From IMG/VR virus record IMGVR_UViG_3300018984_000003, positions 45,787-109,786 of that record: 64,000 nucleotides of DNA. One strand, written 5' to 3'. Below, in pieces: positions 5,222 through 22,741 of this stretch (positions within the stretch are counted from its first letter, which is position 1; every line of letters begins with the position of its first letter). Origin of the DNA: a virus. Lineage: Duplodnaviria > Caudoviricetes. A program made the translations under genes and the position numbers. Below the pieces are notes generated by a model. That model did no database searches and was not told the origin of the DNA. It was given only the letters and a program-made list of their open reading frames with translations.

Positions 5222-6142
5222 ATGCCTACAGCAGCAGATATCCGAATGGACGGGCCGATCCTTTTGCAACGTGCTCTTGAGCATATTATTCCAAAAGTTG
5301 AACGCGCTGCCTATCCCGAATTAAAAGCGTCCGAGCATATCCCAACTTCTTACGAAGGCGGCCCCGGTGCAGAGATGTTGACGCAAGTAACGCTCGACTA
5401 TAGAGGTCGGGCGAAAATTACCTCTGCCCCTGGTGACGATCCACCACTGGTGGGCATTGTTGGCGAAGCGATGAACGCTAGCAACGTCAAGTCAATCACG
5501 GCAGCTTATCGGGTAACTTTCCAAGAGGTACGGGCGGCGGCTTTCGCTGGAATCGACATTTCGGCGGAGAAGGCTTATGGCGCGAAGGAAATGGTGATGC
5601 GCGAATCCAACAGGATTGCGTATCTTGGCGATCCGATGGCTGGGCTATATGGGTTGTTTACTTTTCCGCTCTTGCCTAAAGTTCTTAGTCCCGTCCAGTT
5701 TGACGACCCGGAGCTAGATCCAAACTTAATGCTGCGATATCTTAATACGTGGTCAAATATGATTTACGACGTTATTACCAATCGCACATTCAAGGCGGAT
5801 ACTGTGTTATTTCCGTCGCGGGTTCGTACGGTAATGAATACCACATTTAGGAATGCCAACAGCGACACCACGATCATGGATTTGTGGCGCAAATCTAATC
5901 CACAGATTACCTACGTGGATGATGTGTCGGAAGCTGATGAAGCTGGATTCGATGGCACTCCTGCCATTATTTTCTACAAGAAAGACCCCAGCCACGTCAA
6001 ACGGTTCATTCCGCAGCCGATCGAGCAACTTTTACATCACAACAGCGATACCTCTAAGGAAGTGCTAATTCACGAACGCAACGGTGGCACATTCTTTTCT
6101 CGGTTGTCTGGTCTAGTTATTGAAGGAGTGTTGAGCAGCTAA
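5222..6142 (+). CDS. Major capsid protein (DUF2184 / encapsulin-like HK97 fold)
   Basis: 306 aa. LEHIIPKVERAAYPELKA..NRIAYLGD..GLYGLFT..PQPIEQL..RNGG, in the canonical position after DUF2213 and decoration genes. Confidence 0.85.
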   Translation: MPTAADIRMDGPILLQRALEHIIPKVERAAYPELKASEHIPTSYEGGPGAEMLTQVTLDYRGRAKITSAPGDDPPLVGIVGEAMNASNVKSITAAYRVTFQEVRAAAFAGIDISAEKAYGAKEMVMRESNRIAYLGDPMAGLYGLFTFPLLPKVLSPVQFDDPELDPNLMLRYLNTWSNMIYDVITNRTFKADTVLFPSRVRTVMNTTFRNANSDTTIMDLWRKSNPQITYVDDVSEADEAGFDGTPAIIFYKKDPSHVKRFIPQPIEQLLHHNSDTSKEVLIHERNGGTFFSRLSGLVIEGVLSS

Positions 6143-6842: not shown

Positions 6843-7273
6843 TGTTTGCCAAAATTGCTCAGAAAGCTAGAGATTGTAGTTTTGCCAAGACCGCCGATGG
6901 TTTTGGTTTGACCAACGTTGTCAACCTGCTATTGGTGCGGCGGTTTACGACCGATGGCGTTTCTAGGCAAGAAGTGCGATCGGTCAGTAATCTAATTTGG
7001 AAGAAAGCATCGCCCTCAATCTTTGTTCCCACGATGTCAAACGATGGGACGCAAGCGCGGGAAAACGAATTCACAATTTCCGGCATCCCTCGCAATCTCG
7101 ATTTTGGCGACTGGCTTCAGGCGACGGGAACAAGCTACTGGGTAAATGCAGAAATGCGTGATGGGCGCGTATTTGGAGGTACGGAGGTGGAGTTTGTGAC
7201 GATTGATGAGAACAACCCGCTTGTTTACATTCTCACAGTAAGGAGGAAGCCAGATGAGCGGCGATTTAACTAA
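6842..7273 (+). CDS. Putative head closure protein
   Basis: 143 aa, beta-rich, coupled to the adaptor gene (positional call). Confidence 0.5.
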   Translation: MFAKIAQKARDCSFAKTADGFGLTNVVNLLLVRRFTTDGVSRQEVRSVSNLIWKKASPSIFVPTMSNDGTQARENEFTISGIPRNLDFGDWLQATGTSYWVNAEMRDGRVFGGTEVEFVTIDENNPLVYILTVRRKPDERRFN

Positions 7274-8609
7274 TCTCAAGCAGGAGTTTACGACTGAGCT
7301 AGAGTCAATTTTTGAGAGTGACGAAGCTTATGGGAGCAATATTCAAGTTTTGACTTATGCGCTCAAAGAAGACGTTATTAATGGCAAATTTAAAAACTCT
7401 TGGAATAACAGGGTCTACGAATTTATCATTGACGTTGACGGGATTAGCTATAAGCCAGCGGTGAAACTTGATTCTTTCAATACGGACGAATTACCCGTAA
7501 GGTTTGACGCTTACAGCGAAGGGTATGTATCACTATTTGAAGACGCTCGAATTGATGGCAAGTTGACAGGCAAGCGAACTAAAAAGCCTAAGTGTGGAGT
7601 TGAAGCGTTCGGCTGTGGCTTTAGTTGTATTGGGTTGCTAAAAACTTGTAGGATTCCACCTTCGGGAGGAAAGTCTGCGATCGGGAAAGAACGACTCAAT
7701 AAATTAATGGCAAAAGCGGGCAGATTATACGCCGAGGGTGACAAAGGAGGGGCTGAAGCTCGAACGGCAGCCGCAAATAAAATCACAGACAAAAGAAATA
7801 AAAAAGCAAATCAACTTAGAGAGGAAAGGAAAGAAAAAGTAGCGCAACAGATTAAGGCGGCGACTAAACCCCAAGAAGAAAAGCCAGTAAAGCCAAAACC
7901 GGAGCTAACTAAGTCAACATTAGACCCGACAATGAATCCCAAAACTCATTCAATAAAAACAGAAAAAGAGTTTGAAGATGTAATGCTTCATGTTTTTAAC
8001 AAGTTGAATACAGAAAAGAATTACGATAATTTTGTACCTATTGCTGAGATTAGAAAAGCTATTGGAGAATTAGTACCTAGAGACAAGTTTAATGATTACA
8101 TGGTGCAATCACAAAGTGACGACAAAATTCGACTTGTGGGAGGAGGTCAAGTTGACAAAGATGACATACAAATAAACAGTGCAGGATACAGGCAATACGT
8201 TCAGTTAGAACCCGCAGGAGAAAAGGTACTTGCTAAAAACTCGCCCAATAAAAAACTATCATTAGACAAAAAATTGCAAAACCGTCCCGATCTAGATCCT
8301 TTGGGACTTGCCAGACCCTATGCTAAAGGAAAAGCTATTACAGATAAAGCTGACTTTGACGAAATAATGATAGGCGTACAAAAAGCGTTAGATAAAAGTT
8401 TTATTTTGGGAAATCTTGTCCCTATAGAAATGGTAAAAGATGTATTAAAAAATAGAATATCAGAAAAAGACTTTGATAAGCTTTTAATAGATGGAAGCCC
8501 TAAAGGAGAGTTTACATTGCAATCCGCAGGAGGGTACTATGAAGGTAAATACAAAGGTGTAAAAAACTTTATAGGAGAAGAAAAGCACTACATTCAACTA
8601 AAAGAATAA
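7254..8609 (+). CDS. Polymorphic cargo family member 1, with a C-terminal tandem winged-helix-like repeat
   Basis: Shared N-terminal domain (ELESIFESDEAYGS..GKF..WNNR..YKPA) and Cys4 motif. Two internal repeats: FVPIAEIRKAIGELVPRDKFN and LVPIEMVKDVLKNRISEKDFD. Confidence 0.75.
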   Translation: MSGDLTNLKQEFTTELESIFESDEAYGSNIQVLTYALKEDVINGKFKNSWNNRVYEFIIDVDGISYKPAVKLDSFNTDELPVRFDAYSEGYVSLFEDARIDGKLTGKRTKKPKCGVEAFGCGFSCIGLLKTCRIPPSGGKSAIGKERLNKLMAKAGRLYAEGDKGGAEARTAAANKITDKRNKKANQLREERKEKVAQQIKAATKPQEEKPVKPKPELTKSTLDPTMNPKTHSIKTEKEFEDVMLHVFNKLNTEKNYDNFVPIAEIRKAIGELVPRDKFNDYMVQSQSDDKIRLVGGGQVDKDDIQINSAGYRQYVQLEPAGEKVLAKNSPNKKLSLDKKLQNRPDLDPLGLARPYAKGKAITDKADFDEIMIGVQKALDKSFILGNLVPIEMVKDVLKNRISEKDFDKLLIDGSPKGEFTLQSAGGYYEGKYKGVKNFIGEEKHYIQLKE

Positions 8610-8610
8610 C

Positions 8611-9402
8611 ATGGAAACCAAATCGCCCGTTTTAGTTCAACACCAGCTCAACGTCATCCGAGGCATCGCATTCTCGTTAACAGATGTTCCCCGACTTAGA
8701 TTGGGAACAACGCTACCCAACGCCAGTGGAGTAATTGCCGAAGTTGTCGGCGGTGGTTATTTACCATTTGACCTTGACAACGCCAAAATGTACGCCGCTG
8801 ACGCGGGCAAAACCAGCAACAGCGCTATTCTTGCGTACCCCGCAGCTACCGCAACCTACAACCCGATTTCTTGGCAAGTCACGGTCGGTGCTGACATTTT
8901 CTATGCCGGACACTTGAGGAACGGGGTGACGATCGAGCCTCCCGATTATTTCTTGTTTGACACACACTTTTCCAAGAATTTCACCATTGACGAATCTAAC
9001 GGCGGCGGGTTAGCGCAATGCACCAGTGTTGCCCTGAGAAACAAGCGACTGAATGCCGTTTTTAAAGGTCAAGCGATTACACCGCAAAGCGCCGTAACAG
9101 TCAGACTTGTCAAGCCTGGACTGAACCCGCTAACGGGCGAAGGTGAACCACTGGCGCCTAGGGCAGAGAAAGAATACCCTTGTGCGCTAATAAGCTGGCG
9201 AGATCCGCTACTGACTCGCCAAATTGACAACTTGCTACCGCTCGCTTTTGATCAATTTACTGCTGACACTGGCCCGATCGGTGGTTATCAGATTTGGTCA
9301 GAAGGTGAACTGTGGTACTGGGGAACTCTGGCCCCCGGTAAGTACGGCTGGAACCGTGACCTGCTGACAATCGAACCCGGCGGCATCATTATCAGGGGGT
9401 GA
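8611..9402 (+). CDS. Minor tail/fibre-associated protein with an internal duplication
   Basis: EVVGGGY..TSNSAILAYPAAT in the first half, echoed by IDNLLPLAFDQFT..GELWYWGTL in the second half. Confidence 0.55.
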   Translation: METKSPVLVQHQLNVIRGIAFSLTDVPRLRLGTTLPNASGVIAEVVGGGYLPFDLDNAKMYAADAGKTSNSAILAYPAATATYNPISWQVTVGADIFYAGHLRNGVTIEPPDYFLFDTHFSKNFTIDESNGGGLAQCTSVALRNKRLNAVFKGQAITPQSAVTVRLVKPGLNPLTGEGEPLAPRAEKEYPCALISWRDPLLTRQIDNLLPLAFDQFTADTGPIGGYQIWSEGELWYWGTLAPGKYGWNRDLLTIEPGGIIIRG

Positions 9403-10139
9403 TAACTATGGTTGGAATCTCAGTCGGAGCTTATTCAAAAGTTGGAACTGACAGTGTTAATGCTAACGAAACGCTGTGGACTTTTGGGCGAGCAATTACT
9501 GCACAGTCAAGAGTAGGGAAAGACAGCACCGAGCTAAATCTTAAGTTTGGCCGATCGCTTGGAGCCTCAGCTAAAGTCGGGGCAGATTCTTGCGATTTGG
9601 TTCTATCATTCGGTCGGGCGATCGCTGCTGATAGCAAGATGGGGCGCGATGAATTTTTACTATTGTCGTTACTTGGCAAAATCGTCTTTCCTCCCAGTGC
9701 TGAACTGTTTCTACTCAAAAATGGACAAGAGGAACAGCTAGACGGTAATCAACTGACGCGGGCTGATTTTTACGCTTTCAACTTAAGAATTGTGGGTGAT
9801 CGAGTGGCATCGGAGACTAATGGCTCAGTCAACGTAACCTTTACGGGTAAAGTTGACCCGGCGCACTTAGATAGCAAAGCGCTGTTTAGGAAAACTCTAC
9901 AGAATGGTGGCGTTAAGTTTTTGGGAGTGGAAGATATTGTCACCTACAACGGCAAAACACGGGCGGCAACATACCAAATTCGGCTGTTACCTCAAGACAC
10001 TGCCTCTCTGATGACACCCGCGATCGTTTATGCCGATATTCAGTTGGATGACGGCACGATAAATGGCGAACATTACACAGTTAATCGGTCAAAGTTTTCG
10101 GTGTCTGATGATGTTTATCGTGGCATAGGAGGCAGGTAA
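9399..10139 (+). CDS. Tail/baseplate-associated protein (N-terminal ~21-aa repeats, BppU-like C-terminus)
   Basis: Four G(R)x(I/L/V)xAx(S/A)(K/R)(V/M)GxD repeats. C-terminal IRLLPQDTASL..YADIQL..FSVSDDV. Confidence 0.55.
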   Translation: MITMVGISVGAYSKVGTDSVNANETLWTFGRAITAQSRVGKDSTELNLKFGRSLGASAKVGADSCDLVLSFGRAIAADSKMGRDEFLLLSLLGKIVFPPSAELFLLKNGQEEQLDGNQLTRADFYAFNLRIVGDRVASETNGSVNVTFTGKVDPAHLDSKALFRKTLQNGGVKFLGVEDIVTYNGKTRAATYQIRLLPQDTASLMTPAIVYADIQLDDGTINGEHYTVNRSKFSVSDDVYRGIGGR

Positions 10140-10615
10140 TGAGTTTAGATTCTGTTAAGTTCTCAGTAAACGAGAAACCAAGCCAGCTACGAAACCTGGT
10201 AATTATTCAGGGTGATACCGTAAAATTTTCTGCCAGAATCCCATTAACTAGCTTCTCCACGCAAACTTTGCCCGTGGTGCGATTGTTGGCGCTTGACTCA
10301 TTGAATCCGGCTGAGTCCGTGCAATTAATTGGGCCTAAAAATTTCACCGTCACACTTAACACGACTCTGACAACCGCCGACTTATCACTAATATTAGCTC
10401 CCGCAGACACCGAGACTTTAATACTTGACCAAAATTTAGGACAAGTTCTAGGAATGAGCCAAGGCGATCCAACTTGGTATCAGCCTGCTAAAAAGCTATT
10501 TTTGGAAATTCAATTAACAGGGCTTGCTGTTAATAAGACTTGGCAAGGCGACTTAACGATTAAAGGTGATTTATTCAAGACTAACTCTGCTGGATCTTTA
10601 CCAGGACTGATTTAA
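10139..10615 (+). CDS. BppU-like tail-associated protein
   Basis: NLVIIQGDT..LILAPADTETL..EIQLT..TWQGDLTI. Confidence 0.5.
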   Translation: MSLDSVKFSVNEKPSQLRNLVIIQGDTVKFSARIPLTSFSTQTLPVVRLLALDSLNPAESVQLIGPKNFTVTLNTTLTTADLSLILAPADTETLILDQNLGQVLGMSQGDPTWYQPAKKLFLEIQLTGLAVNKTWQGDLTIKGDLFKTNSAGSLPGLI

Positions 10616-11097
10616 TGCTACCAAGTGAATTGAGAGCCAAATTAAAAGAATGGTTGAGTCAGCAACTACGAATTGATCGGTGGGGACTGAACTCGCCAGA
10701 ATCAGTCAAAGACCTTCGCGCTCCTCCCTCAGCAGGGCTTGACGGCAAAGCGTCTGGATTTTCAGTAGTGGAAATACTTGGAATGGGTAACACTAGCACT
10801 TATTTGCTAGAGACATCAATCCCTTTTCAGATTATCTACCGATTTGATAGCGCCTGCACTTATACTCAAATTCCCAGAGGTTCCGCAGAAGACATTCTGA
10901 CCGCTAGCTTTCTTCAATTACAAGCTCACCTTGCTTGTTTATCGCCCGATATTGAAAAGATAGAAAGCAGGGGTAGCGTAATCATAAACGAAGAACCTAA
11001 GTCTGATTGGCTTTTGATTTTTGAGATTGAATTCAAAGTGAGATTTCATTGTGAATTCATAGAGTTAGCAAATGTATCAGGAGTTTTTAGCGCATGA
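10615..11097 (+). CDS. Putative tail terminator/completion protein
   Basis: 160 aa, coupled, lies upstream of the tail tube gene (positional call). Confidence 0.45.
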   Translation: MLPSELRAKLKEWLSQQLRIDRWGLNSPESVKDLRAPPSAGLDGKASGFSVVEILGMGNTSTYLLETSIPFQIIYRFDSACTYTQIPRGSAEDILTASFLQLQAHLACLSPDIEKIESRGSVIINEEPKSDWLLIFEIEFKVRFHCEFIELANVSGVFSA

Positions 11098-11447
11098 AGA
11101 TTGAATTTGAGATGGCAAAACTAAATCCTACGACTAAAATCAGCCTTGAACTTGTACCTGGTCAACCAACAGAAACAGAAACAGGGTTTGTAGTTCCGAT
11201 TATCTTGCCCACTCCCGACGGTAAGCAAGTTTCAGTAAGTGCTATTGAATGCAAATTACTTGAAGTAGAGAACGGGATTCAGCGAATCGCGGTAAATGCG
11301 GCTCAATACACTAATGGAGAGTTAGGCGAATCTAGCTTGCTGAATCACGTCTTAATCGATCTAAAACAATTTGTTCCGCCAACTGACGAGAATGAAGTTG
11401 TATTAGCTGTTACTGCAACGTCTGTCACTAAAACAAGTGCTAGCTAA
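11094..11447 (+). CDS. Hypothetical protein
   Basis: 117 aa, ATGA overlap with the upstream gene. Confidence 0.65.
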   Translation: MKIEFEMAKLNPTTKISLELVPGQPTETETGFVVPIILPTPDGKQVSVSAIECKLLEVENGIQRIAVNAAQYTNGELGESSLLNHVLIDLKQFVPPTDENEVVLAVTATSVTKTSAS

Positions 11448-11481
11448 GTCAGCAAGACTAGCGCATTCACTTTCCCTTTAA

Positions 11482-12315
11482 TTGTCGGTAAAAACTATGT
11501 CAAACTCACCATTTCAAGGTCGAAGACCAGTTACAGATATCACGATTCGCTTCCGTAATGCACTTGGACAATTAGGATCTCCGGTTTGTGTCGCAACTCC
11601 CAACGATCCGACGCTAAACAAAGGCATTAGTTTAACGGAAATCATGACCACTTCTTCTCAAGGGGAGACAGTCTTAGCGGATCAATTTATTAACGAAAAC
11701 AGACCCTCTCTTACACTCACTTTTCCTTTGTTCACTCCATTGACTGTGGGGATGCGAGAAGGCATGACTCCAGAAGTCATAACAGGTCAATCCAGCACGT
11801 TTATTCACTGGGCTCCTAGGCTAATTACTGAACAAATCTTACCCCCAGCCACAGAGGGGCAGGAAGGATTTGGGGTAATTGCATCTCCTGCGGGTGCAAT
11901 AGGAGGAACACTTACGGAAGACGGCTTGCCAACTCCTCTAACAATGACAGGGACTTATTCTGCTGCTGCGCCGCCGACTGGAACAAACATTGTAGCAATT
12001 GGCGCAAACATGGGTTTAGGGTTTAGCGCTGACTTAGTGGGTAAGTACGTGTCTATGATGATTCCAAACAACCTAGCAGGAGTTATTCGTCTAAACGAAG
12101 GACTTCCACTGGAGCGGTGCGAAATCAACATTTGCGGACAAACTCGAACCCAAAAACGATGGCATCTAAAAATCCCTGAAGCGGTGCTAAATCCTGCGGA
12201 AGGTGATATCCCATTGGGAGCTGAGCAAAATATCGCCGTCACTTATACCATTATTACTGCGGGTCGCTGTAAACCGTATGAATGGGAATGGCTACCACAA
12301 CAACGAATTTGTTAA
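11482..12315 (+). CDS. Probable major tail tube protein (start probably ATG 11497)
   Basis: Beta-rich, Gly/Thr/Pro-rich, 277 aa, with tail-tube-like C-terminal strands (WHLKIPEAVL..IAVTYTI). Confidence 0.6.
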   Translation: MSVKTMSNSPFQGRRPVTDITIRFRNALGQLGSPVCVATPNDPTLNKGISLTEIMTTSSQGETVLADQFINENRPSLTLTFPLFTPLTVGMREGMTPEVITGQSSTFIHWAPRLITEQILPPATEGQEGFGVIASPAGAIGGTLTEDGLPTPLTMTGTYSAAAPPTGTNIVAIGANMGLGFSADLVGKYVSMMIPNNLAGVIRLNEGLPLERCEINICGQTRTQKRWHLKIPEAVLNPAEGDIPLGAEQNIAVTYTIITAGRCKPYEWEWLPQQRIC

Positions 12316-12323
12316 GCTGACCT

Positions 12324-13034
12324 GTGAAAAGTTTATTGTTTTGGCTGGGGCCTCAAGTAATTGTGATTGCCCCAGTTCCCTTTTCTAGATTGTCAACATT
12401 TCAAATTCTTACAGAAGAGTTGACAAAACTCTGGGATAACTTAGAAGGGGACACCGCACTTTTAGCAACGGACTACCAAACACTTTTGCAGCAAATCGCA
12501 AATTTATTCCCTCGACTCGATCTACCACCTCAACCGACAATCTACGGTTGGGATGTTTCATTAATGGAGACAGAAGAAATTCAATTAATGTTCTTATGCA
12601 AAATTGGAGAAGATAACCAAGCTTTTCCTAGTAAGCTTTTAGCATTACATCAGTCAGACGAACCCGTGAATACAGAGGTAGCACAAGAACCGCAAGAAGG
12701 GGATGAGATTGACAACTGGAATCCGCCAATAAAAAGTTGTGGCGACGTTGAACTTGACACTATCGGGCAATTAACCGCTGCAACCAGTGTTAGAGATACA
12801 TTAGCTTTGTACGATCGGTTTGACCTCAACAGTATTAATTTACTGGTGCAAGCTTACAATGCTTCGCAGGAATCCCCAGAGGATCGACGCAAGCAATATC
12901 TAGCAGAAAGTTACCAGAAATATAAAGAACAAAACCCGGATGTTATAAACAAAGCATTGGGGCTTGACACGGCAGATTTTGACCTAACCAAAATGTTTGC
13001 TAATATTCCTCAAAACCCAGAAGGTGAGATATGA
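12324..13034 (+). CDS. Hypothetical protein, possibly a tail chaperone
   Basis: Acidic, helical, 236 aa, directly after the tail tube gene. Confidence 0.55.
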   Translation: MKSLLFWLGPQVIVIAPVPFSRLSTFQILTEELTKLWDNLEGDTALLATDYQTLLQQIANLFPRLDLPPQPTIYGWDVSLMETEEIQLMFLCKIGEDNQAFPSKLLALHQSDEPVNTEVAQEPQEGDEIDNWNPPIKSCGDVELDTIGQLTAATSVRDTLALYDRFDLNSINLLVQAYNASQESPEDRRKQYLAESYQKYKEQNPDVINKALGLDTADFDLTKMFANIPQNPEGEI

Positions 13035-14494
13035 GCGACTTAAACGATTTATTTAGTAGACAAGATTCGTTTTTACCTGGACTGTTTGCCAATGCCTACA
13101 CCGGACAAGGGACAGCGCGTGATCGAAGTGTATACACCGAGATTCAAGCACTTCGCAAACTTGCACCTCAAGACATAGACCATTTGTACGAATATCACTG
13201 GATGGTGCAGAATCTAATTGATGTGTTACCCGACGAATGTACTAGAGAGTGGATTGAATATCAGATAACGGGCGAAAATAATGCACCAGATTTAATAGGT
13301 CAATTCATTGAATACCAAGACAGATTAGTTGATGATGTTGGAGACGAAATATCAACTGCTGATATCTTCAATGAAGCAATGAGAGAGGAACGGCTAACAG
13401 GTGGCTCAGCTATCTATATTGACATTGACGACGGGCGGGAAGCTTGGGAAGAGGTAGACGAAAAAAATATTAAAACTATCAATTTTTTGCGAGTATTTGA
13501 CCGTTGGGCTGTTACGCCAGAGCGTCATGCGTCATTAGAAAAAAACGAGAATTTTTTAATGCAAGACGATTTTACGTGGGACATGAGCCGACCGACTCAC
13601 TATCGGTTAAGTTTGGCGCGGAATATTGGACAGAAAAACACTGGGCTAATTCACCGATCGCGCGTGTTGAGATTTGCTGGCGCAACCCGCTTAAGTTATC
13701 GTTCTCGACAACGTAATCAAGGCTGGGGCAATTCAGTTTTAGAAACATTCGCTCAACCACTCGCTCGGTACGATCTGGCTATTAGCTTAGCTGCTTCTTT
13801 ATTGCCTGAAATTATCAAAAAAACTTGGAAAATAAAAGATTTATTTAAAATGATTATCGCGGGAGATGAAGAATTTTTACGGAAACGAATTGCTGAAGCT
13901 GCAATGATGGAGTCGAGTTTTAAGTACCGCGTGATTGACAAAGATACGGAAGATATACAAGAAAGTTCGCTAAATTTTGAAGGTATTTTTGGGGCAGTAG
14001 AAAAGACAATTGATGAATGTGTAGCAGCCTCTAATTTGCCTCGCACCTACCTATTAGGAGTATCCCCAGCGGGCAAACTAGGGGTCAGTGGTGGTAGCGA
14101 ACAAACGGACATGAATAAAACCGTCCGCCAATATCAGAACAGACACATGAAGCGCCAACTAAACCGCTTCCATTGGCTGTGCTGGCTAGCTAAAAACTCA
14201 CCAACAAAAGGTAATATACCTAATGGTTTTCGGTGGAACTTTATTGACACCCACCCCATGACCGAGAAAGAAAAAGCAGATTTATTTTCTATTTATGCCG
14301 GGGCGAACAGCAGCTATATTAGTTCGCAGGTGCTTATGCCAGAAGAAGTTGCTAACTCAGTGTTTGGTGGCACGACTCCGCAGTATAAAATAAACTTAGA
14401 CTTTGACAAGCGCAAAAAATTAGAAGAAGAACAAAACGCGCCGCCGATGGAATTAGGGGGCGACGATGCAGCAGCTTTTGAGGAGGAAGAGTAA
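13031..14494 (+). CDS. Portal protein (DUF1073 type)
   Basis: LYEYHW..LIDVLPDECTREW..ERLTGGSAI..IHRSRVLRF..GWGNSVL..AASNLPRTYLLGVSPAG. Confidence 0.9.
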   Translation: MSDLNDLFSRQDSFLPGLFANAYTGQGTARDRSVYTEIQALRKLAPQDIDHLYEYHWMVQNLIDVLPDECTREWIEYQITGENNAPDLIGQFIEYQDRLVDDVGDEISTADIFNEAMREERLTGGSAIYIDIDDGREAWEEVDEKNIKTINFLRVFDRWAVTPERHASLEKNENFLMQDDFTWDMSRPTHYRLSLARNIGQKNTGLIHRSRVLRFAGATRLSYRSRQRNQGWGNSVLETFAQPLARYDLAISLAASLLPEIIKKTWKIKDLFKMIIAGDEEFLRKRIAEAAMMESSFKYRVIDKDTEDIQESSLNFEGIFGAVEKTIDECVAASNLPRTYLLGVSPAGKLGVSGGSEQTDMNKTVRQYQNRHMKRQLNRFHWLCWLAKNSPTKGNIPNGFRWNFIDTHPMTEKEKADLFSIYAGANSSYISSQVLMPEEVANSVFGGTTPQYKINLDFDKRKKLEEEQNAPPMELGGDDAAAFEEEE

Positions 14495-15804
14495 TGACAA
14501 ATCGTGTAGAAACGAACAATGAACTGACGGACTTTGTAGAGCAGTTAGAGGCGTTGATAGAAAGTGACGACGCATACAACTCGAATTTTTACGTGCTTTC
14601 ATTTGCACTTGCTAGCAACGGCGACATTACTGGAAAGTTTCAAGATACCTGGAACAATCGAATTTTTAGCTACTCTATTGAAAAAAATCGAATAGGTTAT
14701 AAACCTTCGTTGACGCTCGATCGGGCGGACAGTGCTACAGCAGCCAAACAATTTGATATTTTCTCCTCCGGCTACATATCACTGGGAGTTAGATGGGATG
14801 CTGTCAAAAGTGGCAAAAAACCTAGTTGTACTGCTGTTAGTTACAGTTGTGGCAAGGCTTGCATTCAATTAAAAAACACTTGCTGGATTAACAGCTTTGG
14901 ACAGAAAGTAAAAAAAGAGGGTGGCGCGGTTGCCAATATTAGCCAAGGACGCATTGACAAGCTTCGGACGCTAGCGCGATACTTAACGGCGAACGGGAAT
15001 CATAAATGGTCAAAGTATGGCAGTGCTGAACTTTTAGCGGCTAAAGCAAATGTTTTAGAAGCTGCCAGGAGTAAATTATTTTCTTCTAATATTGCACAAC
15101 CTACTGCAAAAATAAAGCCCTTTAGTATTGATAATACGCATGATGTAATTCCGGCTTCTGCTACTTCTGGCGCAGATGAGGATGAGGATAATTTACTTGC
15201 TGCGTTCGGTTCTAGTTCCGATATCAAAAATCCAGAAGTTGTCAGGAAAATATCAAAAGTAACTGGAATGAAAGATAAAGAAGTGAAAGCATCGTTGGAT
15301 GCTCTCGCAGAGTTTAGCGGAGCAGGTTACAAAAAATATAGAGAACTAGAAAAAACTGGAAAACTAAGCTCAGGAGAATCAAGTGAAGTCATTACTAAGA
15401 TGAAATCCAAAGTAAAAGCTATCAATCAATATATTGAAAAAATGCCCAAATTTTATAGATCTATCTATAGAGGGGTACAACTAGAATCTCAACAGGCTCT
15501 TGATGACGCTATTAAAAAATTGCAAAACGGAGACTCTCATGAACTAAACGCTATGTCAAGCTTTAGTTCGTCTGAGTCTCAGGCACGTGCATTTGCCTTA
15601 GCAAGCAAAAAAGGTCAGAAGGTTTCTATTATATATGAAGTAATAGAAAACAAGTCAGGTGTTACAATAAGAAACCTTTCAAAATTTCCAGAAGAAGATG
15701 AAGTTCTTGTTCCAAAAGGAGCGAGATACAAACTTGCTGGCGACACAAAAACTTTTCACACACCAGGCGGATTAATCATAACTATTCCCGTTAAAGAGGT
15801 TTAA
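14494..15804 (+). CDS. Polymorphic cargo family member 2, with a C-terminal ADP-ribosyltransferase (R-S-E clade, VIP2/Alt-like)
   Basis: IYRG / AMSSFSSS / SKFPEEDEVLVPKG catalytic motifs after the shared N-terminal domain and Cys4 motif. Confidence 0.85.
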   Translation: MTNRVETNNELTDFVEQLEALIESDDAYNSNFYVLSFALASNGDITGKFQDTWNNRIFSYSIEKNRIGYKPSLTLDRADSATAAKQFDIFSSGYISLGVRWDAVKSGKKPSCTAVSYSCGKACIQLKNTCWINSFGQKVKKEGGAVANISQGRIDKLRTLARYLTANGNHKWSKYGSAELLAAKANVLEAARSKLFSSNIAQPTAKIKPFSIDNTHDVIPASATSGADEDEDNLLAAFGSSSDIKNPEVVRKISKVTGMKDKEVKASLDALAEFSGAGYKKYRELEKTGKLSSGESSEVITKMKSKVKAINQYIEKMPKFYRSIYRGVQLESQQALDDAIKKLQNGDSHELNAMSSFSSSESQARAFALASKKGQKVSIIYEVIENKSGVTIRNLSKFPEEDEVLVPKGARYKLAGDTKTFHTPGGLIITIPVKEV

Positions 15805-15843
15805 ATAAGTTCGATCTTTCTTAATTTGGCGATATGTCTTATT

Positions 15844-16032
15844 CTATTTCTTCTCGTATTCGTTTTTGCTTCTTTCCGGTCTAAGTGCTAGACTTTCTAA
15901 GAATTCTTCTTGTGTATCTAAAAATCTTGCAGCGCGTTCTGCACTCATTGGTTTTTCACCAATTGATCTAGGTACGTTTTTGTTTGAATTAGCTGCAAAT
16001 TTACTTGGATTGTCTTTGTTTTGGGATATCAT
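15844..16032 (-). CDS. Small antisense ORF after the ART gene
   Basis: 62 aa with an ATG start, filling an otherwise empty gap in the late operon. Confidence 0.45.
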   Translation of the reverse strand: MISQNKDNPSKFAANSNKNVPRSIGEKPMSAERAARFLDTQEEFLESLALRPERSKNEYEKK

Positions 16033-16142
16033 AAAAAAATGAATGGTATATTGAGATTATACAGCGAAGCACTGTCAAAATCTAGAGAATATAGAAGGTT
16101 TAGTAAAAACTATAGCCAAATAAAAACCATTAATAAAAAATA

Positions 16143-17711
16143 ATGAGATATTACACAGATGCTAACAGCGAGCCGACTAAAGAAGTTAGACAATGGAATG
16201 GTATCCCACTAAACATTACTACGAGAACCGGGGAACCACGATTCTCTTTCAGTCCACCAATGACGTGCAACTATGGCTGCATCCGAGGATCGTGGGGTGC
16301 GGGGTTAGATGGTAAAGCCTTAGATGTATACGTGGTTAGTGACACGCCAACAGTGTTTAAAATAGTGCAGATTACTCCGACAGGGGCGATCGACGAATAT
16401 AAATATGTCTTAGGGGCTGAAAATTTGGATGAGGCTGTTGAGACATTTTTGAAGCACGTCCCTAAGCAACTGTTTGGGGCGGCTAGCCAGTATTCGATCA
16501 CCCAACTACAAAACGATATCGCCCAGCAGTCTAAAGTAAAGAGAGATGCTGACGAATTGGCGGAGCTTGTGCAACGGCTAGAGACATTGATCGAAAGTGA
16601 CGACGCTTATGGCTTAAATATTTACTTACTATCGTTTGAAGTTGCTAGCGGCGGCAACATCACGGGGAAGTTTGAGGACGCTTGGAATAGGCGGGTTTTT
16701 AGCTACTCTGTTGAGCAAACTCGGATTGGATATAAACCTGCATTGACGCTCGATCGGGCGGATAGTGTGGTTGCAGCCAAACTGTTTGACATTTTCTCTT
16801 TTGGTTACACTTCGCTAGGGGTCAGGCAAGATGCCGTCAAAAATGGGAAAAAACCCCGTTGTACCGCAGTCAGTTATAACTGTGGTAGAGCTTGTATTCA
16901 ACTGCAAAATACTTGCTGGATTAACAGTTCTGGACAGAAAGTAAAAAAGGCAAACGGCGCGGTAGCCAGCATTAGTCAGGGACGGATTGATAAGCTTCGG
17001 ACGTTGGCGCGATACTTGGCGGCAAACGGGAATCAGAAATGGTCAAAGTATGGCAGTGCTGAACTTTTAGCGGCTAAAGCTGGCAATCTAGAAAGAGCGA
17101 GAGAGCGATTAATAGCTTCTGGTGTTAAAAAGCCACCAACTGAAACAGCCCAATTTACTACTCCTAAGCAAGTTTTAGTATTAGAAGATAAACTAAAAAC
17201 TCAAAAGTTTGAATCACTAGCTGCTTTTGACTCAAAAGGGAAGCAAGTTGCATTCTTAGATGGAGAGCAATATAGCGTTAAAATACCAGAGCAACTGATT
17301 CCACAATTGAAAGATACAATCATCACCCACAATCACCCAAGGGGACTTGAACATTCTAAAACAGATCCAAGATATCTAGGCAATTCATTTTCTATGGAAG
17401 ATATTGATTTACTTTATACTGTCGCAGCCGTCGAGATGAGGGCAGTCTCCCCCGGTTATCGGTATAGTATAAAGCCACCCAAAGACGGTTGGAAATTTCA
17501 GTCAAGGAATGAAATAATAGACGCATTAATAAATATTGAAATAGGAGTCAAAAAAGATTTTCAAGCTAAAGTTAATTCAGGAGAACTAAAATACAAAGAC
17601 GCTGAAGCTAATCACCAACACGAAATAATGACACGATTTTCTCAAAAATATGAGACAATCTATGAAAGAACATTATACAAAAAACATCAAAATGAACAAA
17701 CTACAACTTGA
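16143..17711 (+). CDS. Polymorphic cargo family member 3: inorganic-pyrophosphatase-like domain + shared domain + JAB/MPN-like domain
   Basis: N-terminal YGCIRGS..DGKALDVYV..DEYKYVLG. C-terminal FESLAAFD..ITHNHP..SFSMEDI. Confidence 0.8.
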   Translation: MRYYTDANSEPTKEVRQWNGIPLNITTRTGEPRFSFSPPMTCNYGCIRGSWGAGLDGKALDVYVVSDTPTVFKIVQITPTGAIDEYKYVLGAENLDEAVETFLKHVPKQLFGAASQYSITQLQNDIAQQSKVKRDADELAELVQRLETLIESDDAYGLNIYLLSFEVASGGNITGKFEDAWNRRVFSYSVEQTRIGYKPALTLDRADSVVAAKLFDIFSFGYTSLGVRQDAVKNGKKPRCTAVSYNCGRACIQLQNTCWINSSGQKVKKANGAVASISQGRIDKLRTLARYLAANGNQKWSKYGSAELLAAKAGNLERARERLIASGVKKPPTETAQFTTPKQVLVLEDKLKTQKFESLAAFDSKGKQVAFLDGEQYSVKIPEQLIPQLKDTIITHNHPRGLEHSKTDPRYLGNSFSMEDIDLLYTVAAVEMRAVSPGYRYSIKPPKDGWKFQSRNEIIDALINIEIGVKKDFQAKVNSGELKYKDAEANHQHEIMTRFSQKYETIYERTLYKKHQNEQTTT

Positions 17712-17874
17712 CTCAGACGATATTGATGCTATTTATCCATTAGAATATATTACTATTGCAGCAAATTCTGGAGATGCTGAAGCCGCAAAAGAGCTAAAGC
17801 AACGATTGATTGATCGAGCCAACTACAAAACTACACAGGTAATAAAACAACAATCTAATGCAAGACTTAAATGA
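17692..17874 (+). CDS. Small protein downstream of the JAB-domain gene (candidate inhibitor)
   Basis: ATG 17692 (MNKLQLDSDDIDAIYPLEY...), overlaps both neighbours. Confidence 0.5.
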   Translation: MNKLQLDSDDIDAIYPLEYITIAANSGDAEAAKELKQRLIDRANYKTTQVIKQQSNARLK

Positions 17875-19366
17875 ATTCATACAACAATTAGAAGCACTCA
17901 TTGAGAACAACGACGCTTATGGATCAGGAGTAAATTTGCTGTCGTTTGACATTGGCGACAACGGAAACATCACTGGCAAGTTTCAAGATTTAAGGAATCG
18001 CCGAATCTTCAGTTATTCCGTTCAAAAATCTCGCATCGGGTACAAACCTGCGATCGCCACAACTAACACTGACAGCGCAACAGACTCAAGACTTCTTGAC
18101 GTGTTTTCGCTAGGGTATACATCCCTAGAATCTAGGTATGACGCCGTAAAAGGTGGAAAAAAGCCACGCTGTACTGCTATCAGTTACGGGTGTGGAAGTA
18201 TCTGCATTCCCTTGCAACATACCTGTTGGATTAATAGTGCAGGACAAGAGACTAAACGGGCTGGTGGTTCGATCGAGAGCGTCAGTCAAGGGCGGATTGA
18301 CAAAATCCGAGCGTTAGCTAAATACCTAGACTCAAAGGGCAATAACAAGTGGTCGCGGTACGGCACTGCTAACGACCTAAAAACTAAAGCAAACACGCTA
18401 GAGAAAGAACGGACGGGGATGTTTAAGGCTGGAGTTAGGAAGCAAACACCGATAGACCCGTTAATGGCAGGATTAAAAAAAGCATTTGATTCAGGTAATT
18501 TTACAGAAGCTAAAATACTTGCACGGCAGGCAGCCAGTAAGATGAAATCTGGGGCTGAAGTTGCAAACTATTTGCAAAAAATATCCGAAGCTATAGGTGG
18601 TGAGCAAAAATTAATAATTGACAAAAAACAAGAAGTTACTAAGCAAGCTAATCAAATTAAAGAAAAAAAGGGGTCAAAAGAGGCTAAAAAGTTTTACTCA
18701 GCAAACTGGAACGAAGAGGTTGAAGCAAAAAGCAAAAAATACGAAGACTTTATTTCAAACGTTGCCAGGCAATTTCTATATGTAAACCCACCATCTAAAA
18801 TGAAAGGGTTTAACGGTGGCTTAGCTAACCCAAAAACACAAGCCAAGACAGGGACGTTAAACCAAGAGCAATCAACCAAACTGGTGGCAGGAATAAACGC
18901 TTTCAAGAAAATGGTAGGAGTCGATACTGTTGACGGGAAAACCTTAAAAGTGGCAGCGCTTGATGCCAGTTTTGGAAAAGCAGCCGATCGCTCGTTCTAC
19001 GGAAGAGGTGGCATCTACATGGCGGATAAAGCCCCTGTAGAGGTTGTTGTCCACGAAGCCGCGCACTGGCTAGAAGAATCAGACCCAAAAATCCACGATA
19101 AAGTGCAGAAGTTTTTTGAGAGTCGAACCGCCGGAGAGAAATGGAAAAAGCTCAGCGAGTTGACGGGAAACTCAAACTACGGGGATAATGAGGTAGCGAA
19201 GCCGGACAAGTGGCCAAAAGCTTATATGGGGAAGAAGACTAATAGCGATAAAAACTCTGAAATCCTGTCTATGGGCATGGAAATGATGTACCGAGATCCG
19301 GTAGCTTTTGCAAAAACCGATCCCGAATATTTTGCTTTTATTCATAACACACTAAGAGGAAAATAA
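17858..19366 (+). CDS. Polymorphic cargo family member 4, with a C-terminal zincin metallopeptidase
   Basis: VVVHEAAHWLE (HExxH) plus distal YMGK..SEILSMGME..DPEYF. Confidence 0.85.
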   Translation: MQDLNEFIQQLEALIENNDAYGSGVNLLSFDIGDNGNITGKFQDLRNRRIFSYSVQKSRIGYKPAIATTNTDSATDSRLLDVFSLGYTSLESRYDAVKGGKKPRCTAISYGCGSICIPLQHTCWINSAGQETKRAGGSIESVSQGRIDKIRALAKYLDSKGNNKWSRYGTANDLKTKANTLEKERTGMFKAGVRKQTPIDPLMAGLKKAFDSGNFTEAKILARQAASKMKSGAEVANYLQKISEAIGGEQKLIIDKKQEVTKQANQIKEKKGSKEAKKFYSANWNEEVEAKSKKYEDFISNVARQFLYVNPPSKMKGFNGGLANPKTQAKTGTLNQEQSTKLVAGINAFKKMVGVDTVDGKTLKVAALDASFGKAADRSFYGRGGIYMADKAPVEVVVHEAAHWLEESDPKIHDKVQKFFESRTAGEKWKKLSELTGNSNYGDNEVAKPDKWPKAYMGKKTNSDKNSEILSMGMEMMYRDPVAFAKTDPEYFAFIHNTLRGK

Positions 19367-19632
19367 TGCCAACAGTTAAGTTCTCCGAGGCTGATGCAGT
19401 AATTGAAAATAGCACATGGACAAGCAATAATCAAGATTTAGCCGACTTATTAAATGAGTGGACTCAAAACGAAATACGAACCGCAATGATCGACGAACCA
19501 TTCTTTATGTTGTATTCCCCGTCCAATCCCTGGCCCGACATAACGATCGCTGAAGCAGCAGTAGAAGCGTGGAACGGAAAAATAATAGATGAAGGAACAC
19601 CGCCGGAACACGAGCCAGATAGAATTTACTAA
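19366..19632 (+). CDS. Small acidic protein coupled to the zincin gene (candidate inhibitor)
   Basis: 88 aa, TAATG overlap. Confidence 0.65.
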   Translation: MPTVKFSEADAVIENSTWTSNNQDLADLLNEWTQNEIRTAMIDEPFFMLYSPSNPWPDITIAEAAVEAWNGKIIDEGTPPEHEPDRIY

Positions 19633-21040
19633 CTCAGGAGAGAATAAAATGCAAGCTACTACAATGAACGGTTTAACTGAAACTGGAGGCAACAATGCCG
19701 AAATTTCTAAATCATTACTAAAAATATTAAACATTTATTATACGTCTGGCATCGACCGCATTAAAACTTATGGAAAAAGCCCCAGCGGAAATATTGTTGG
19801 CGAATTTATTGCTGATGGAACGACTTTTCAGTACATTCTGAACATGAAAACTAACACGGTATCCTATGAGCCAGTAGGTAGCAAAACCGCGAGCAAAGCC
19901 GACTCATTGCTGGCTGAGGCAGAGAATGCCTATCGGTTCAAAACAATTTATTCGGCGCGGGAGGCTTTTGATATTTCAGAAACAGGGGCGATTGAGCAAA
20001 AGCTAGATAGCTGGTTTTTTCGCGCTGATGCGCCAACAAAAGCCAAGATAGGTGTCAAAGCAAAAGCTAACAAGTCCGGAAAAACCTTGACTTGCACTCC
20101 CGGCAAAACATTCCCGTGCGGTGCGGTATGTCGTGCGATGGGGAAGCCTTGCAAGCAGCCGATGTCGCCAGAAGTGCAGGAAATCGCTGGACAAATTGCT
20201 GCCAAAATCAAAACGCCGACGGCTGCGACAACAACACCTGCAACTACTTCGCTAACCACGGGTACAACATCAGGGAAGATGACGGCTCAAAAGATGGCGG
20301 AACAAATTGCTGCGGCAAAAGCGCTGGAGGTGGATGCACCAAAAGATAAAGGTAGTAGTATAAAACTTATTCCTTCGCTTATTGCTGTTAAACGTATAAC
20401 AGCACCCACACAAGAATTTGATCAAAATGAATTGATGGCAGCAGCAGAAGCAATGCTAAAAGTAGGGGGTTTTATTGAAAGTCCAATATTACGACGAAAA
20501 GGTGAAGGGTTTAAAATAGTGTCGGGTGAATTTCAAGTTGCGGCAGCAATTGTTGCTAAAGCAATGAAGCCATTGAGCGGAGAAAACTTACCCGCAATCA
20601 TAATTGATGACGAAAACGAAGAAGCTGTCATGAGCCAAGTTAAACTAAAAAACAAAAGAGCAACCAACTCCCAATCAGCAGCCAATATCAGCACAGCAAA
20701 ACCTAAAAAAGTAGAGAATGAAACGCCACAAGAATTTGAAAGAAGACGATCAAGCGAGAATACCGGAAGAATGATGCACCTTGAAATAAGAAAAATAGAT
20801 CCAGGTGAACCGCATTCTGAGTCAGCAGAATCTGTAGCAGAAGCAGCAAAACTAATTAAAGCCGCTGGACGAAACTGGATACCTGTACCTATCCAGCAAA
20901 CTAAGGATTATGAATACGAAGTAGTAGGTAATTCGTTTATTTACGAAGCAGCCAAAAAAGCAGGAGTTGAGCGATTGTGGACTGTAGTCGTTGATCCACT
21001 TCCAGAAAACATTAAGCAAGCTAAATTGTTAGGGCGCTAG
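19589..21040 (+). CDS. Polymorphic cargo family member 5 (divergent), with tandem ParB-like domains (start probably ATG 19649)
   Basis: GNIVGEF..F.Y..VSYEP, RADA, CTPGKTFPCGAVCRAMGKPC, then GGFIESPILRR..FKIVSGEF and GRNWIPVPI..YEVVGNSFIYEAA. Confidence 0.7.
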   Translation: MKEHRRNTSQIEFTNSGENKMQATTMNGLTETGGNNAEISKSLLKILNIYYTSGIDRIKTYGKSPSGNIVGEFIADGTTFQYILNMKTNTVSYEPVGSKTASKADSLLAEAENAYRFKTIYSAREAFDISETGAIEQKLDSWFFRADAPTKAKIGVKAKANKSGKTLTCTPGKTFPCGAVCRAMGKPCKQPMSPEVQEIAGQIAAKIKTPTAATTTPATTSLTTGTTSGKMTAQKMAEQIAAAKALEVDAPKDKGSSIKLIPSLIAVKRITAPTQEFDQNELMAAAEAMLKVGGFIESPILRRKGEGFKIVSGEFQVAAAIVAKAMKPLSGENLPAIIIDDENEEAVMSQVKLKNKRATNSQSAANISTAKPKKVENETPQEFERRRSSENTGRMMHLEIRKIDPGEPHSESAESVAEAAKLIKAAGRNWIPVPIQQTKDYEYEVVGNSFIYEAAKKAGVERLWTVVVDPLPENIKQAKLLGR

Positions 21041-21331
21041 TTTGCGACATAACCCAAACGCGCGCGCCAGCAAATTTTCTTCAACAGTTATCAACTCCCC
21101 AATCCAGACCCAAGCCGCTGCCCAAGCCATTACGCAGTCATCATGACCCGCGACAGCTTTTCTGTCTTTTGTAGAAAAGTTTTTCATCTCTTCAATACCT
21201 TGCCAGTTGGGGGGATAGCAAACCGTGCCACCCTCAAGCGCAATCGCCAGCCGATCGGTATTAACTCGCTTGGATACCGCAGATGTGTTGACCTTCTCAA
21301 ACCGCAGGGATGATCGGGCGCTATCTACCCT
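21029..21331 (-). pseudogene. Orphan C-terminal part of a second terminase nuclease domain, in frame behind the terL stop
   Basis: Hand translation: RVDSARSSLRFEKVNTSAVSKRVNTDRLAIALEGG..IEEMKNF..KAVAGHDDCVMAWA..ENLLARAFG. No start codon at its 5' end. Confidence 0.75.
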
Positions 21332-22741
21332 TTACCCAAATGCCCGCACTAACAAATTACTTTCTTTCTCAACGCAAGAAAAAGCCCCAGAGCTGGCATC
21401 AGTAAAATCATTAACTAAGGGTTGACGACTGCCGTTAAATTTGTACAGCGCGTTGAGATATCGATCATTCCAATCACCCCGTACCAGCTTGACATTGCCC
21501 CGCATAGCCTCTGACGCAAAGGGAACCGCCCGTTTTACTTTGTCGCCTTGTGGTTTAACTGCTTCTGCTGAAAACCCAGACAACAAATCTTGCAAGTGTA
21601 CGGCGTCCCGAATCCCGGCACTACCACCCTCTAACTCCCAATAAACAGCGCAAGTGTTGCCGTCCATTAATGCCGTGTTTGAGATTAGCTGATCCGCCTC
21701 GGCTGGAGAGACTTGTTCGGCGATCGCATCTAAGACATAGTAGACATCATCAACAAATTGCAACTTAACCCCAGCGGTGAAGTATGCAGTGTCCTTGACT
21801 GTTGCCGCCAAGTCCCAGAACCTGAGAATTTGACCGCCACGCGGCGCAAAGTCAACAACCTCAAACCATTCGCGCTTAAAGACCATCCCAACGCCTTTCG
21901 CCTCAAACGGGATGCAATCTAATTCTTCCCGTGCGTTGATGCCGTAAGCTTCTCTCAATTCCTGTTCCCATACGAGTTGACCTTCTAACGTCCATTTCTG
22001 CCTCAATTTCAAACAAATTCGATGATATAAACCATCGCCAAGTGCTGTCGCCAAATCATAGCGATGGTAACTATATTTAAGTTCTCCTGTCTTACACTTT
22101 TCAATTAACTCATTAAAATAATTGTTTTTGCCGTTATGTGTAGACCAAATAGCAACCTTGCCACCCCACATATTAATAGCAAGCGCTGCTTTAAGTAATT
22201 CATCTAAATCATTGTGGAAAGCTGCTTCGTCAATCCGTAGCCGTCCCTTTTTTGCCCGCAGGTTTGCCGGACGCGACGACAAAGCTGTCACCTTGAATCC
22301 TGAATCAAATCGAATTGTGTAAGCGAGAATATTTTTATCTGGCTCCTCAATAACTGATTCATTGATACCCGAACAAGCTAAGTTGTAACCTTTTGCCCAA
22401 TATGCAACATCTTCTATATATTGTCGGCTCATGTCAAAATTAAACCCAACATACCAACTGTCGCACCCGTTATTTTGAGCCGCAATTAACGCCGAATCAG
22501 CGGCATCTGCCCAACTAATTCCGATCCGCCTACTCTTCTCACAAATCTTGATCGGAGATTGATCCCGAATCCAGTTCTGCTGATAGCGTAGCAATATCGG
22601 CGGGTTCGATACCCAAGATGCGCCACCCGATCGCTGCTGCTGTTTCTGGAGTAAGTCCGCACCCCTCTTCTTCGGGACGATCAGGGATGATTCCCGCAAA
22701 CGCCTCTCGAAGGTTTGACTTAAGCTTGAGATTTTCGTCAT
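21332..22741 (-). CDS. terL: Terminase large subunit
   Basis: EKSRRIGISW (Walker A), RIDEAAFH (Walker B), WSTHNG, then the nuclease domain FWDLAA..GDKVKRA..NDFTDA. The true start is probably downstream of the ORF-track start. Confidence 0.92.
   Translation of the reverse strand: MTKISSLSQTFERRLRESSLIVPKKRGADLLQKQQQRSGGASWVSNPPILLRYQQNWIRDQSPIKICEKSRRIGISWADAADSALIAAQNNGCDSWYVGFNFDMSRQYIEDVAYWAKGYNLACSGINESVIEEPDKNILAYTIRFDSGFKVTALSSRPANLRAKKGRLRIDEAAFHNDLDELLKAALAINMWGGKVAIWSTHNGKNNYFNELIEKCKTGELKYSYHRYDLATALGDGLYHRICLKLRQKWTLEGQLVWEQELREAYGINAREELDCIPFEAKGVGMVFKREWFEVVDFAPRGGQILRFWDLAATVKDTAYFTAGVKLQFVDDVYYVLDAIAEQVSPAEADQLISNTALMDGNTCAVYWELEGGSAGIRDAVHLQDLLSGFSAEAVKPQGDKVKRAVPFASEAMRGNVKLVRGDWNDRYLNALYKFNGSRQPLVNDFTDASSGAFSCVEKESNLLVRAFG

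Follow-up and report, generated by a model that had tools for sequence, protein, structure and literature searches.

We found that five plus-strand genes in a 64,000-nt stretch of DNA from a virus of the Caudoviricetes (bases 45,787-109,786 of the 109,786-bp record IMGVR_UViG_3300018984_000003, estimated to be 92% complete; hereafter the window, whose numbering is used for all coordinates of this virus) have one protein module of about 190 amino acids (aa) in common and continue into mutually unrelated tails. The genes start at 7254, 14494, 16143, 17858 and 19589 and are referred to here as paralogs 1 to 5, and the shared module as the carrier. The module is previously undescribed and has neither a Pfam family nor a convincing solved fold. 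In our interpretation, to which we assign a probability of about 60%, the five genes encode cargo proteins of the head interior and form a family specific to the lineage of cyanophages similar to Planktothrix phage PaV-LD and to CL131. Every member would be headed by a carrier comparable to that of the MuF proteins, as if polyvalent proteins had been divided over an array of paralogs. Phage proteins that are coinjected with the DNA act ahead of any phage gene expression, which makes them prime candidates for a role in anti-defence or host takeover. The known carriers (MuF, portal fusions and giant polyvalent proteins) are reported to be scarce in cyanobacteria, and the phages of filamentous, bloom-forming cyanobacteria would have a carrier of their own with arrays of five to nine swappable effectors. 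The family constitutes a catalogue of mostly unannotated effector domains and gives a testable rule linking a protease motif to a widespread module of head maturation, and its carrier may provide a protein tag for loading capsids.

The shared module and its unrelated tails

The carrier is N-proximal in four of the five proteins and internal in paralog 3, where it lies behind an InPase domain. When the copy of paralog 2 was searched over the whole record we obtained matches at exactly five places (E = 5e-127, 8e-96, 3e-75, 1e-28 and 8e-3), and the remaining copies are 75, 57, 39 and 26% identical to it. A preliminary description of the window had recognised this sharing and put the length of the domain at about 100 aa; the sharing holds, and the part quoted there corresponds to the first ~95 aa of a module about twice as long. 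The elements that it had listed behind this part, namely R-x-D-[AG], a basic stretch and the four-cysteine motif C-x6/7-CG-x2-C-x6-C (Cys4), are present in all five proteins. Searching the window in six frames with the cysteine pattern resulted in 6 matches, compared to a mean of 0.05 over 100 shuffled sequences. The sixth match (about 270-326, minus strand) is rich in Trp and Gly, lies inside a 542-aa open reading frame (ORF; 2-1627, minus strand) that runs off the window, and is probably a chance occurrence or another Cys-rich element unrelated to the module.

A confident AlphaFold model of the module based on 98 sequences (predicted local distance difference test score, pLDDT, 85.8; predicted template modelling score, pTM, 0.78) suggests two parts connected by a linker. 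Residues 5-95 are predicted to form an alpha/beta subdomain of about 95 aa composed of a helix, a four-stranded sheet and a second helix, while residues 116-133 would fold into two small hairpins bearing the four cysteines, and residues 151-197 into a helical hairpin. The linker (96-115), which holds R-x-D-A and the basic run, is modelled with lower confidence: the pLDDT is 81 for residues 91-100 and 69 for residues 101-110, compared to 92-96 on both flanks. The two halves are separable, as the PaV-LD proteins ORF080R, ORF081R and ORF085R contain the Cys4-helix half only and ORF083R the N-subdomain only. Pfam scans placed no family on the module, neither in the five proteins nor in 150 relatives; the commonest family, InPase (10 of 95 members), lies outside it. 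Comparing the carrier with the Protein Data Bank (PDB), we obtained nothing at E <= 1e-3 with Foldseek and no significant match in a profile search, and a wide VIA-align comparison likewise gave no clear fold, its best Z of 5.1 being under the noise guide. The best PDB profile matches (positions 99-148) are to the Fe-S-binding N-terminal region of CO dehydrogenase; with non-significant E-values of 0.7-2.4 they are a lead for metal binding at most. No description of the module turned up in a literature search.

The preliminary description had called the C-termini unrelated, and BLASTP comparison of the tails bears this out. Its assignments for two of the enzymatic tails stand as given. Paralog 2 (14494..15804, plus strand; R-W-D-A at 14791-14802, Cys4 at 14827-14883) ends in an ADP-ribosyltransferase (ART) that scores above the Pfam gathering thresholds of two families (PF03496, 27.8 versus 23.4 bits; PF01129, 26.9 versus 22.3 bits). 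Paralog 4 (17858..19366, plus strand; R-Y-D-A at 18134-18145, Cys4 at 18170-18226) ends in a zincin with the signature HExxHxxE, which is near-invariant in 17 homologs (HEAAH at 19052-19066; phrog_33618 at 4.4e-47); its homologs in PaV-LD are ORF080R and ORF081R.

For the other three tails the earlier assignments stand in part. Paralog 3 (16143..17711, plus strand; R-Q-D-A at 16824-16835, Cys4 at 16860-16916) consists of an InPase domain (residues 13-123; PF18823 at 9.8e-15), the carrier (137-335) and a tail (340-522) that had been described as JAB/MPN. The pattern THNHP...SFS..D is invariant in 7-8 homologs of this tail, and its model (pLDDT 89) has RadC (2qlc; probability 0.97, E 6e-3) as the top Foldseek match, followed by JAMM1, AMSH and BRCC36. 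These points speak for a RadC/JAB-like fold; against it, none of the matches reached E <= 1e-3 and the Pfam scan gave no match on the tail. A homolog search with the tail alone returned a single fragment. Paralog 5 (19589..21040, plus strand; R-A-D-A at 20021-20032, Cys4 at 20093-20152) probably starts at its 21st codon (19649), because the ortholog in a related 151.7-kb viral record (G001) begins there. It combines a divergent carrier with a ParB_N-like tail, for which tandem domains had been proposed. One ParB_N stretch was detected just below the cut-off (PF02195, 24.8 versus 26.3 bits) and five carrier relatives match the same family with E-values of up to 5e-7; a second copy was not detected by this search, and the tandem arrangement is not confirmed, as the halves of the tail have no BLASTP similarity. 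The tail of paralog 1 (7254..8609, plus strand; carrier at about residues 1-200, R-I-D-G at 7548-7559, Cys4 at 7593-7649) is internally repeated, as had been claimed, and its likeness to winged helix-turn-helix (wHTH) domains is to be taken as a lead only. Full-length orthologs of paralog 1 occur in G001 and on a 49-kb contig (C98) from a lake metagenome-assembled genome (MAG).

Rarity, arrays and tail exchange

The preliminary description had proposed a profile of the shared domain together with a catalogue of its C-terminal partners. The tails were found to vary across the relatives. An exhaustive profile search of 1,835,955,588 cluster representatives returned 197 proteins at E <= 1e-3, 99 of them at E <= 1e-10, with lengths of 55-2,122 aa. 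The Cys4 pattern is present in 132 of 155 family proteins, and the long ones carry two to five copies between other domains. As partners we observed InPase, ART/PARP, GNAT, ParB_N, protein and lipid kinase, esterase/lipase, LRAT and DnaJ domains, furthermore pentapeptide repeats, DUF3626 and LPD1. Long relatives with three to five Cys4 units contain esterase, kinase, DnaJ and LPD1 domains. Most tails of the family have no Pfam family. Single-linkage clustering of 133 tails resulted in 35 groups, and two-domain intermediates drew paralogs 1, 2 and 5 into one chain; this procedure under-counts the diversity, because mosaic tails chain together.

Carriers occur in multi-copy arrays, with 5 copies in the window's record, 5 in G001, 8 in PaV-LD and 9 in C98; CL131 has 2 weak matches to the carrier profile. 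For related loci, a single-protein query of viral contigs found none. One alignment query yielded a single locus in viral contigs and none in genome contigs, and another alignment yielded five in genome contigs. C98 holds genes for portal, protease and capsid protein together with a 1,681-aa ORF and was binned in an 'Acetobacteraceae' MAG; it is probably mis-binned, since its gene content is phage-like.

By megablast, the head-gene block that contains the five genes matched none of 50,697 phage records, and at the protein level the sole related phage among these was PaV-LD (two accessions). Structural look-alikes of the module in BFVD are cyanophage proteins only; the three named ones come from Nodularia phages, and the unnamed accessions are presumably those of PaV-LD and CL131. 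One close homolog is annotated as a hypothetical protein of Microcoleus. As PaV-LD is the only phage matched by protein, the BFVD look-alikes come from cyanophages and this homolog from Microcoleus, the host of the virus is most likely a filamentous cyanobacterium.

Several observations bear on the exchange of tails. The high DNA identity between paralogs 2 and 3 with an abrupt stop, noted in the preliminary description as a recombination junction, was recovered: across the module 76% of the positions are identical, in its last 60 codons 82-87%, and beyond these ~25-35%, and an exact run of 44 nt ends at 15047. Such a pattern indicates that this boundary is a junction of recombination or gene conversion. 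Among carrier pairs of 70-90% identity, 334 of 517 have unrelated tails, and the same holds for 7 of the 15 pairs that are at least 90% identical. An InPase-carrier-zincin protein of G001 aligns with paralog 3 at 70% identity (residues 1-332) and with paralog 4 at 84% (residues 3-502). Judged by these alignments, it and the InPase-carrier-JAB protein of the window are related by a direct tail swap. The modular, polymorphic character that had been claimed for the family is therefore evident both from tail differences among near-identical carriers and from the swap in G001.

Links to the phage head

The five genes lie in a plus-strand head-morphogenesis block (2,969-22,741), which is closed by a convergent large terminase gene (21332..22741, minus strand; phrog_979 at 6.8e-38, PF17289). 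The order in this block is protease-scaffold, cement protein, capsid protein, DUF4054 connector, portal, carriers and terminase. The protease-scaffold gene (2969..4393, plus strand) encodes a DUF2213 prohead protease fused to a coiled-coil scaffold (phrog_530 at 2.8e-61, PF09979 at 1e-31), the gene at 5222..6142 (plus strand) a major capsid protein of the PF09950/DUF2184 type, and the gene at 13031..14494 (plus strand) a portal protein of the Phage_portal_3 family (PF06381 at 3.5e-49, phrog_146). The portal gene stands directly upstream of four carrier genes, and paralog 1 is placed after head-tail connector genes. Carriers directly following portal or connector genes were likewise observed in G001, PaV-LD and C98; in the window they occupy the usual site of MuF behind the portal. 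The carrier had been stated not to be MuF, and indeed PF04233 (MuF) gave no match on the five proteins (E <= 0.1) or in the whole 109.8-kb record, while matches were obtained in control genomes. In G001 only two carriers lie behind the portal; the carrier-ART gene is found elsewhere, at about 96 kb, ~20 kb from the head block and beside minus-strand genes. Carrier genes are therefore not always located in the head cluster.

Three further observations connect carriers and virion proteins. The InPase domain alternates between carrier and portal: in C98 it is fused to the C-terminus of the portal protein (6089-8083) and not to a carrier, and a weak match (E 0.015) connects the InPase domain of paralog 3 with the C-terminal part of a solved portal (9b41). 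Portal-InPase fusions are among the architectures described by Iyer et al. (PMC5512222). Two PaV-LD proteins bear virion labels in GenBank, ORF081R (Cys4 and zincin) as 'virion structural protein' and ORF085R (Cys4) as 'minor virion protein'; being labels only, these are a hint. A predicted complex of carrier and portal gave a score of 0.00 in a run without controls, which counts neither for nor against binding.

Under the interpretation favoured here, the conserved front module would carry the proteins into the procapsid beside portal and scaffold, in the role of MuF. The DUF2213 prohead protease would then recognise R-x-D-[AGS] and probably cut there, trimming the N-subdomain, and the long multi-enzyme precursors of the relatives would be diced at each 'RxDA-Cys4' punctuation. 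Effectors headed by Cys4 would exit together with the DNA and have host transcription, defence or nucleotide signalling as their early targets, and their tails would be swapped by recombination at the end of the carrier.

Of the computational evidence, the distribution of the linker motif speaks most strongly for the idea, put forward in the preliminary description, that the prohead protease removes a propeptide. R-x-D-[AGS] is found in all five carrier linkers. It also occurs within the first dozen residues of the capsid protein in 4 of 4 phages (IRMDG, VRMDG, IRMDA and TRLDA; residues 7-11 in the window's IRMDG), although these capsid proteins are only 23-27% identical, and is conserved at this N-terminus in G001, CL131 and PaV-LD. 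It is further present at the N-terminus of the protease-scaffold protein in 5 of 5 phages and of the portal in all 3 examined (SRQDS at residues 9-13 in the window). Five copies lie in the protease-scaffold protein of the window (residues 16, 152, 287, 311 and 335; 0.5 expected). The counts for the scaffolds are 5, 5, 3, 12 and 10, compared to 0.4-0.8 by shuffling (Poisson P from 9e-3 to 1e-10), and with 14.2 motifs per 1000 aa the scaffolds exceed the 0.59 of 62 background ORFs from these loci ~24-fold. Of the 30 internal Cys4 copies in the long relatives, 20 have the motif ahead of them. The cleavage motif of the T4 prohead protease shows the same pattern of distribution. One motif common to capsid protein, protease-scaffold, portal and carriers, and enriched in scaffolds, thus speaks indirectly for the proposed cleavage. 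In the T1-like coliphage Rogue1, which has the same types of protease and capsid protein, the protease (695-1804) starts with MRYDS and the capsid protein (3914-4861) bears KLDA at its N-terminus. Because both Rogue1 proteins bear it, an N-terminal [RK]-x-D-[AS] motif may be general to this type of head, beyond cyanophages.

A broader reading is more tentative, and we regard it as possible though somewhat doubtful: N-subdomain, R-x-D-[AGS] and Cys4 together may form a dedicated tag for cargo loading and processing in heads of the DUF2213 and DUF2184 type. One protease motif would then be shared by capsid protein, scaffold, portal and cargo, the targeting subdomain would be stripped off, and polyvalent precursors would be diced into injected enzymes headed by Cys4. 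Should it be true, this would give the first cleavage rule for DUF2213 proteases, a widespread family used by T1-like coliphages as well, and a natural portable tag to load arbitrary proteins into phage capsids.

Several points weigh against the cargo interpretation. The motif was found post hoc and lies within 24 aa upstream of the Cys4 element in only 88 of 171 first copies. It could be a docking motif instead of a cleavage site, because a cut at the N-termini of capsid protein and protease would take off only 6-20 residues. A literature search on the specificity of DUF2213 proteases returned no relevant paper; an excerpt of the E217 paper reports that the first 65 residues of the capsid protein are unseen, and the available part of the Pam3 cyanophage paper contains nothing on protease sites and describes disulfide-linked Cys clusters in virions. 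The Cys4 element could form disulfides, bind zinc or an Fe-S cluster, or bind nucleic acid. The presence of full-length carriers in the virion is a prediction, and the PaV-LD proteins with virion labels contain only the Cys4 part of the module. The carrier of paralog 5 is weakly similar to that of paralog 2 in a single-sequence comparison (E 8e-3). Finally, PF18818 (MPTase-PolyVal) matched neither the zincin of paralog 4 nor any other part of the record.

As a first alternative, the five proteins might be unpackaged, cytoplasmic host-takeover enzymes, early or late, with Cys4 as a regulatory, oligomerising or nucleic-acid-binding module, and their place among head genes would reflect shared timing or transcription. 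In its favour, full carriers are placed in virions by prediction, zinc and nucleic acids are frequent ligands of Cys4 knuckles, and no relative is known for the predicted fold that would link the module to capsids. We consider this explanation unlikely in view of the position of carriers directly behind portal and connector genes in four genomes, the alternation of InPase between portal and carrier, the virion labels of the two PaV-LD proteins (labels only) and the recurrence of the linker motif in capsid protein, scaffold and portal.

An alternative that we regard as quite improbable accepts the location in the head and reverses the roles: the module itself would be a structural ejection or DNA-pilot part, for example one that binds the DNA end or the portal channel, or a conduit, with the enzymatic tails as accessories. 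Paralog 1 fits such a role in that it is conserved in full length at the same position in G001 and C98 and has a non-enzymatic tail, for which the wHTH likeness is a lead, and the PaV-LD proteins consisting of Cys4 only are labelled structural (in GenBank, as labels only). However, the presence of five to nine copies in each genome, whose enzymatic tails are exchanged rapidly, and the recurrence of the module as punctuation in long multi-enzyme proteins fit cargo better.

Known systems and accompanying reading frames

The carrier family resembles MuF (PF04233; SPP1 gp7, Mu gp30) in its layout: a gene beside the portal, a conserved head-associated N-terminus and exchangeable enzymatic C-termini including ART, with delivery along with the DNA presumed. 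Adjacency to portal and head genes combined with variable C-terminal enzymes among close relatives, by which MuF-type systems are recognised, was observed here as well. MuF carriers with polymorphic toxins are reported in print (PMC5576092, PMC3482391). In contrast to MuF, the carrier lacks a PF04233 match and has a different predicted fold with a Cys4 knuckle, and it occurs as 5-9 paralogs per genome, compared to one MuF, with no evident cognate immunity genes.

Polyvalent proteins are characterised in PMC5512222 as multi-enzyme, virion-associated and injected, with ART, InPase, ParB, RadC, zincin, GNAT and kinase domains, and a paucity of them in cyanobacteria is reported there. The domain repertoire of the carrier family largely overlaps with theirs, and both share the neighbourhood of virion genes and a predicted early injection. 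At least two disparate activities in one polypeptide encoded next to virion genes, which define a polyvalent protein, are found in paralog 3 (InPase and RadC/JAB-like) and in the long relatives. The other four proteins of the window carry a single effector each, unlike polyvalent proteins, and the effectors of the family are mostly split into a gene array in which each is headed by the same carrier. No LPD model in Pfam matches the carrier or its 'RxDA-Cys4' part, a result that covers the Pfam LPDs only; not every profile of the 40 LPD domains is in Pfam. In paralog 4, HExxH with an acidic residue three positions on resembles one polyvalent clade shown in PMC5512222, a resemblance only.

Two further comparisons concern packaged proteins of well-studied phages. 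The internal proteins and Alt of T4 have a capsid-targeting sequence of ~10 aa that is removed by the prohead protease gp21. As in T4, unrelated cargos here have a common N-terminal element and the protease motif of capsid protein and scaffold; the shared part, however, is a folded module of ~190 aa, the protease belongs to the DUF2213 family, and a cut would have to be assumed. Packaging of Alt is also treated in PMC5512222, which further describes DarA, DarB and DdrB of P1 as head-packaged, proteolytically processed antirestriction proteins including a ParB-like domain and a zincin. These P1 proteins resemble the carrier family in being head-packaged effectors with the two latter domains; we found no sequence relation to them, and the logic of their carriers is different. 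The earlier view that the system has not been described is overstated: the concept is in print with MuF and the polyvalent proteins, while the carrier module, the paralog array and the link to a protease motif are new.

The preliminary description had pointed to a small ORF after three of the enzymatic members and had suggested immunity genes. All three positions were confirmed. After the ART gene, the only gap in the block (338 nt) contains a hydrophilic 62-aa ORF with an ATG start (15844..16032, minus strand), overlapped by a 58-aa TTG ORF (15866-16042, plus strand); the 62-aa ORF would be the sole opposite-strand gene of the block, and neither of the two has a homolog in related loci or a Pfam family. 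A 74-aa ORF (17650..17874, plus strand) overlaps paralog 3 at its end as well as paralog 4 at its start and is not conserved in related loci. The third, an acidic 88-aa ORF (19366..19632, plus strand), accompanies the zincin gene and has homologs beside zincin genes in G001 (65% identity), PaV-LD (34%; ORF082R, after ORF081R) and C98 (38%). Its conservation indicates that it is a real partner gene of the zincin, and its product is a candidate partner or inhibitor. The immunity reading is unsupported for two of the three small ORFs because they have no homologs in related loci.

A classical polymorphic toxin-immunity system, acting upon release at lysis, in superinfection exclusion or in interbacterial competition, would account for the conserved N-terminus with variable C-terminus and for the small ORFs as immunity genes, and it has a reported precedent in the MuF-type toxins of temperate phages (PMC5576092), yet we regard it as very unlikely given that the ART and JAB tails lack a conserved small ORF beside them, that the one conserved ORF travels with a zincin labelled as virion protein in the PaV-LD record (a label only), and that the tails draw on the same set of domains (InPase, ParB, RadC, GNAT, kinases) as injected polyvalent effectors (PMC5512222).

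In PaV-LD, the stretch 15355-17877 holds two tandem Cys4-zincin genes (ORF080R and ORF081R) and, behind them, ORF082R as the homolog of the 88-aa ORF, and in C98 three zincin genes surround the homolog. The pair of zincin and small ORF looks like the most constant member of the arrays. Scans for promoters and terminators over 13000-21400 gave results at chance level. The order of the block, with protease, capsid protein and connectors leading and portal, carriers and terminase at the end, is unusual. The gene next after paralog 1 (8611-9402, plus strand) has two matches to the Pfam family Gp80 (podophage GP4 fiber I protein) and is an unexpected neighbour at its site between connector genes and portal.

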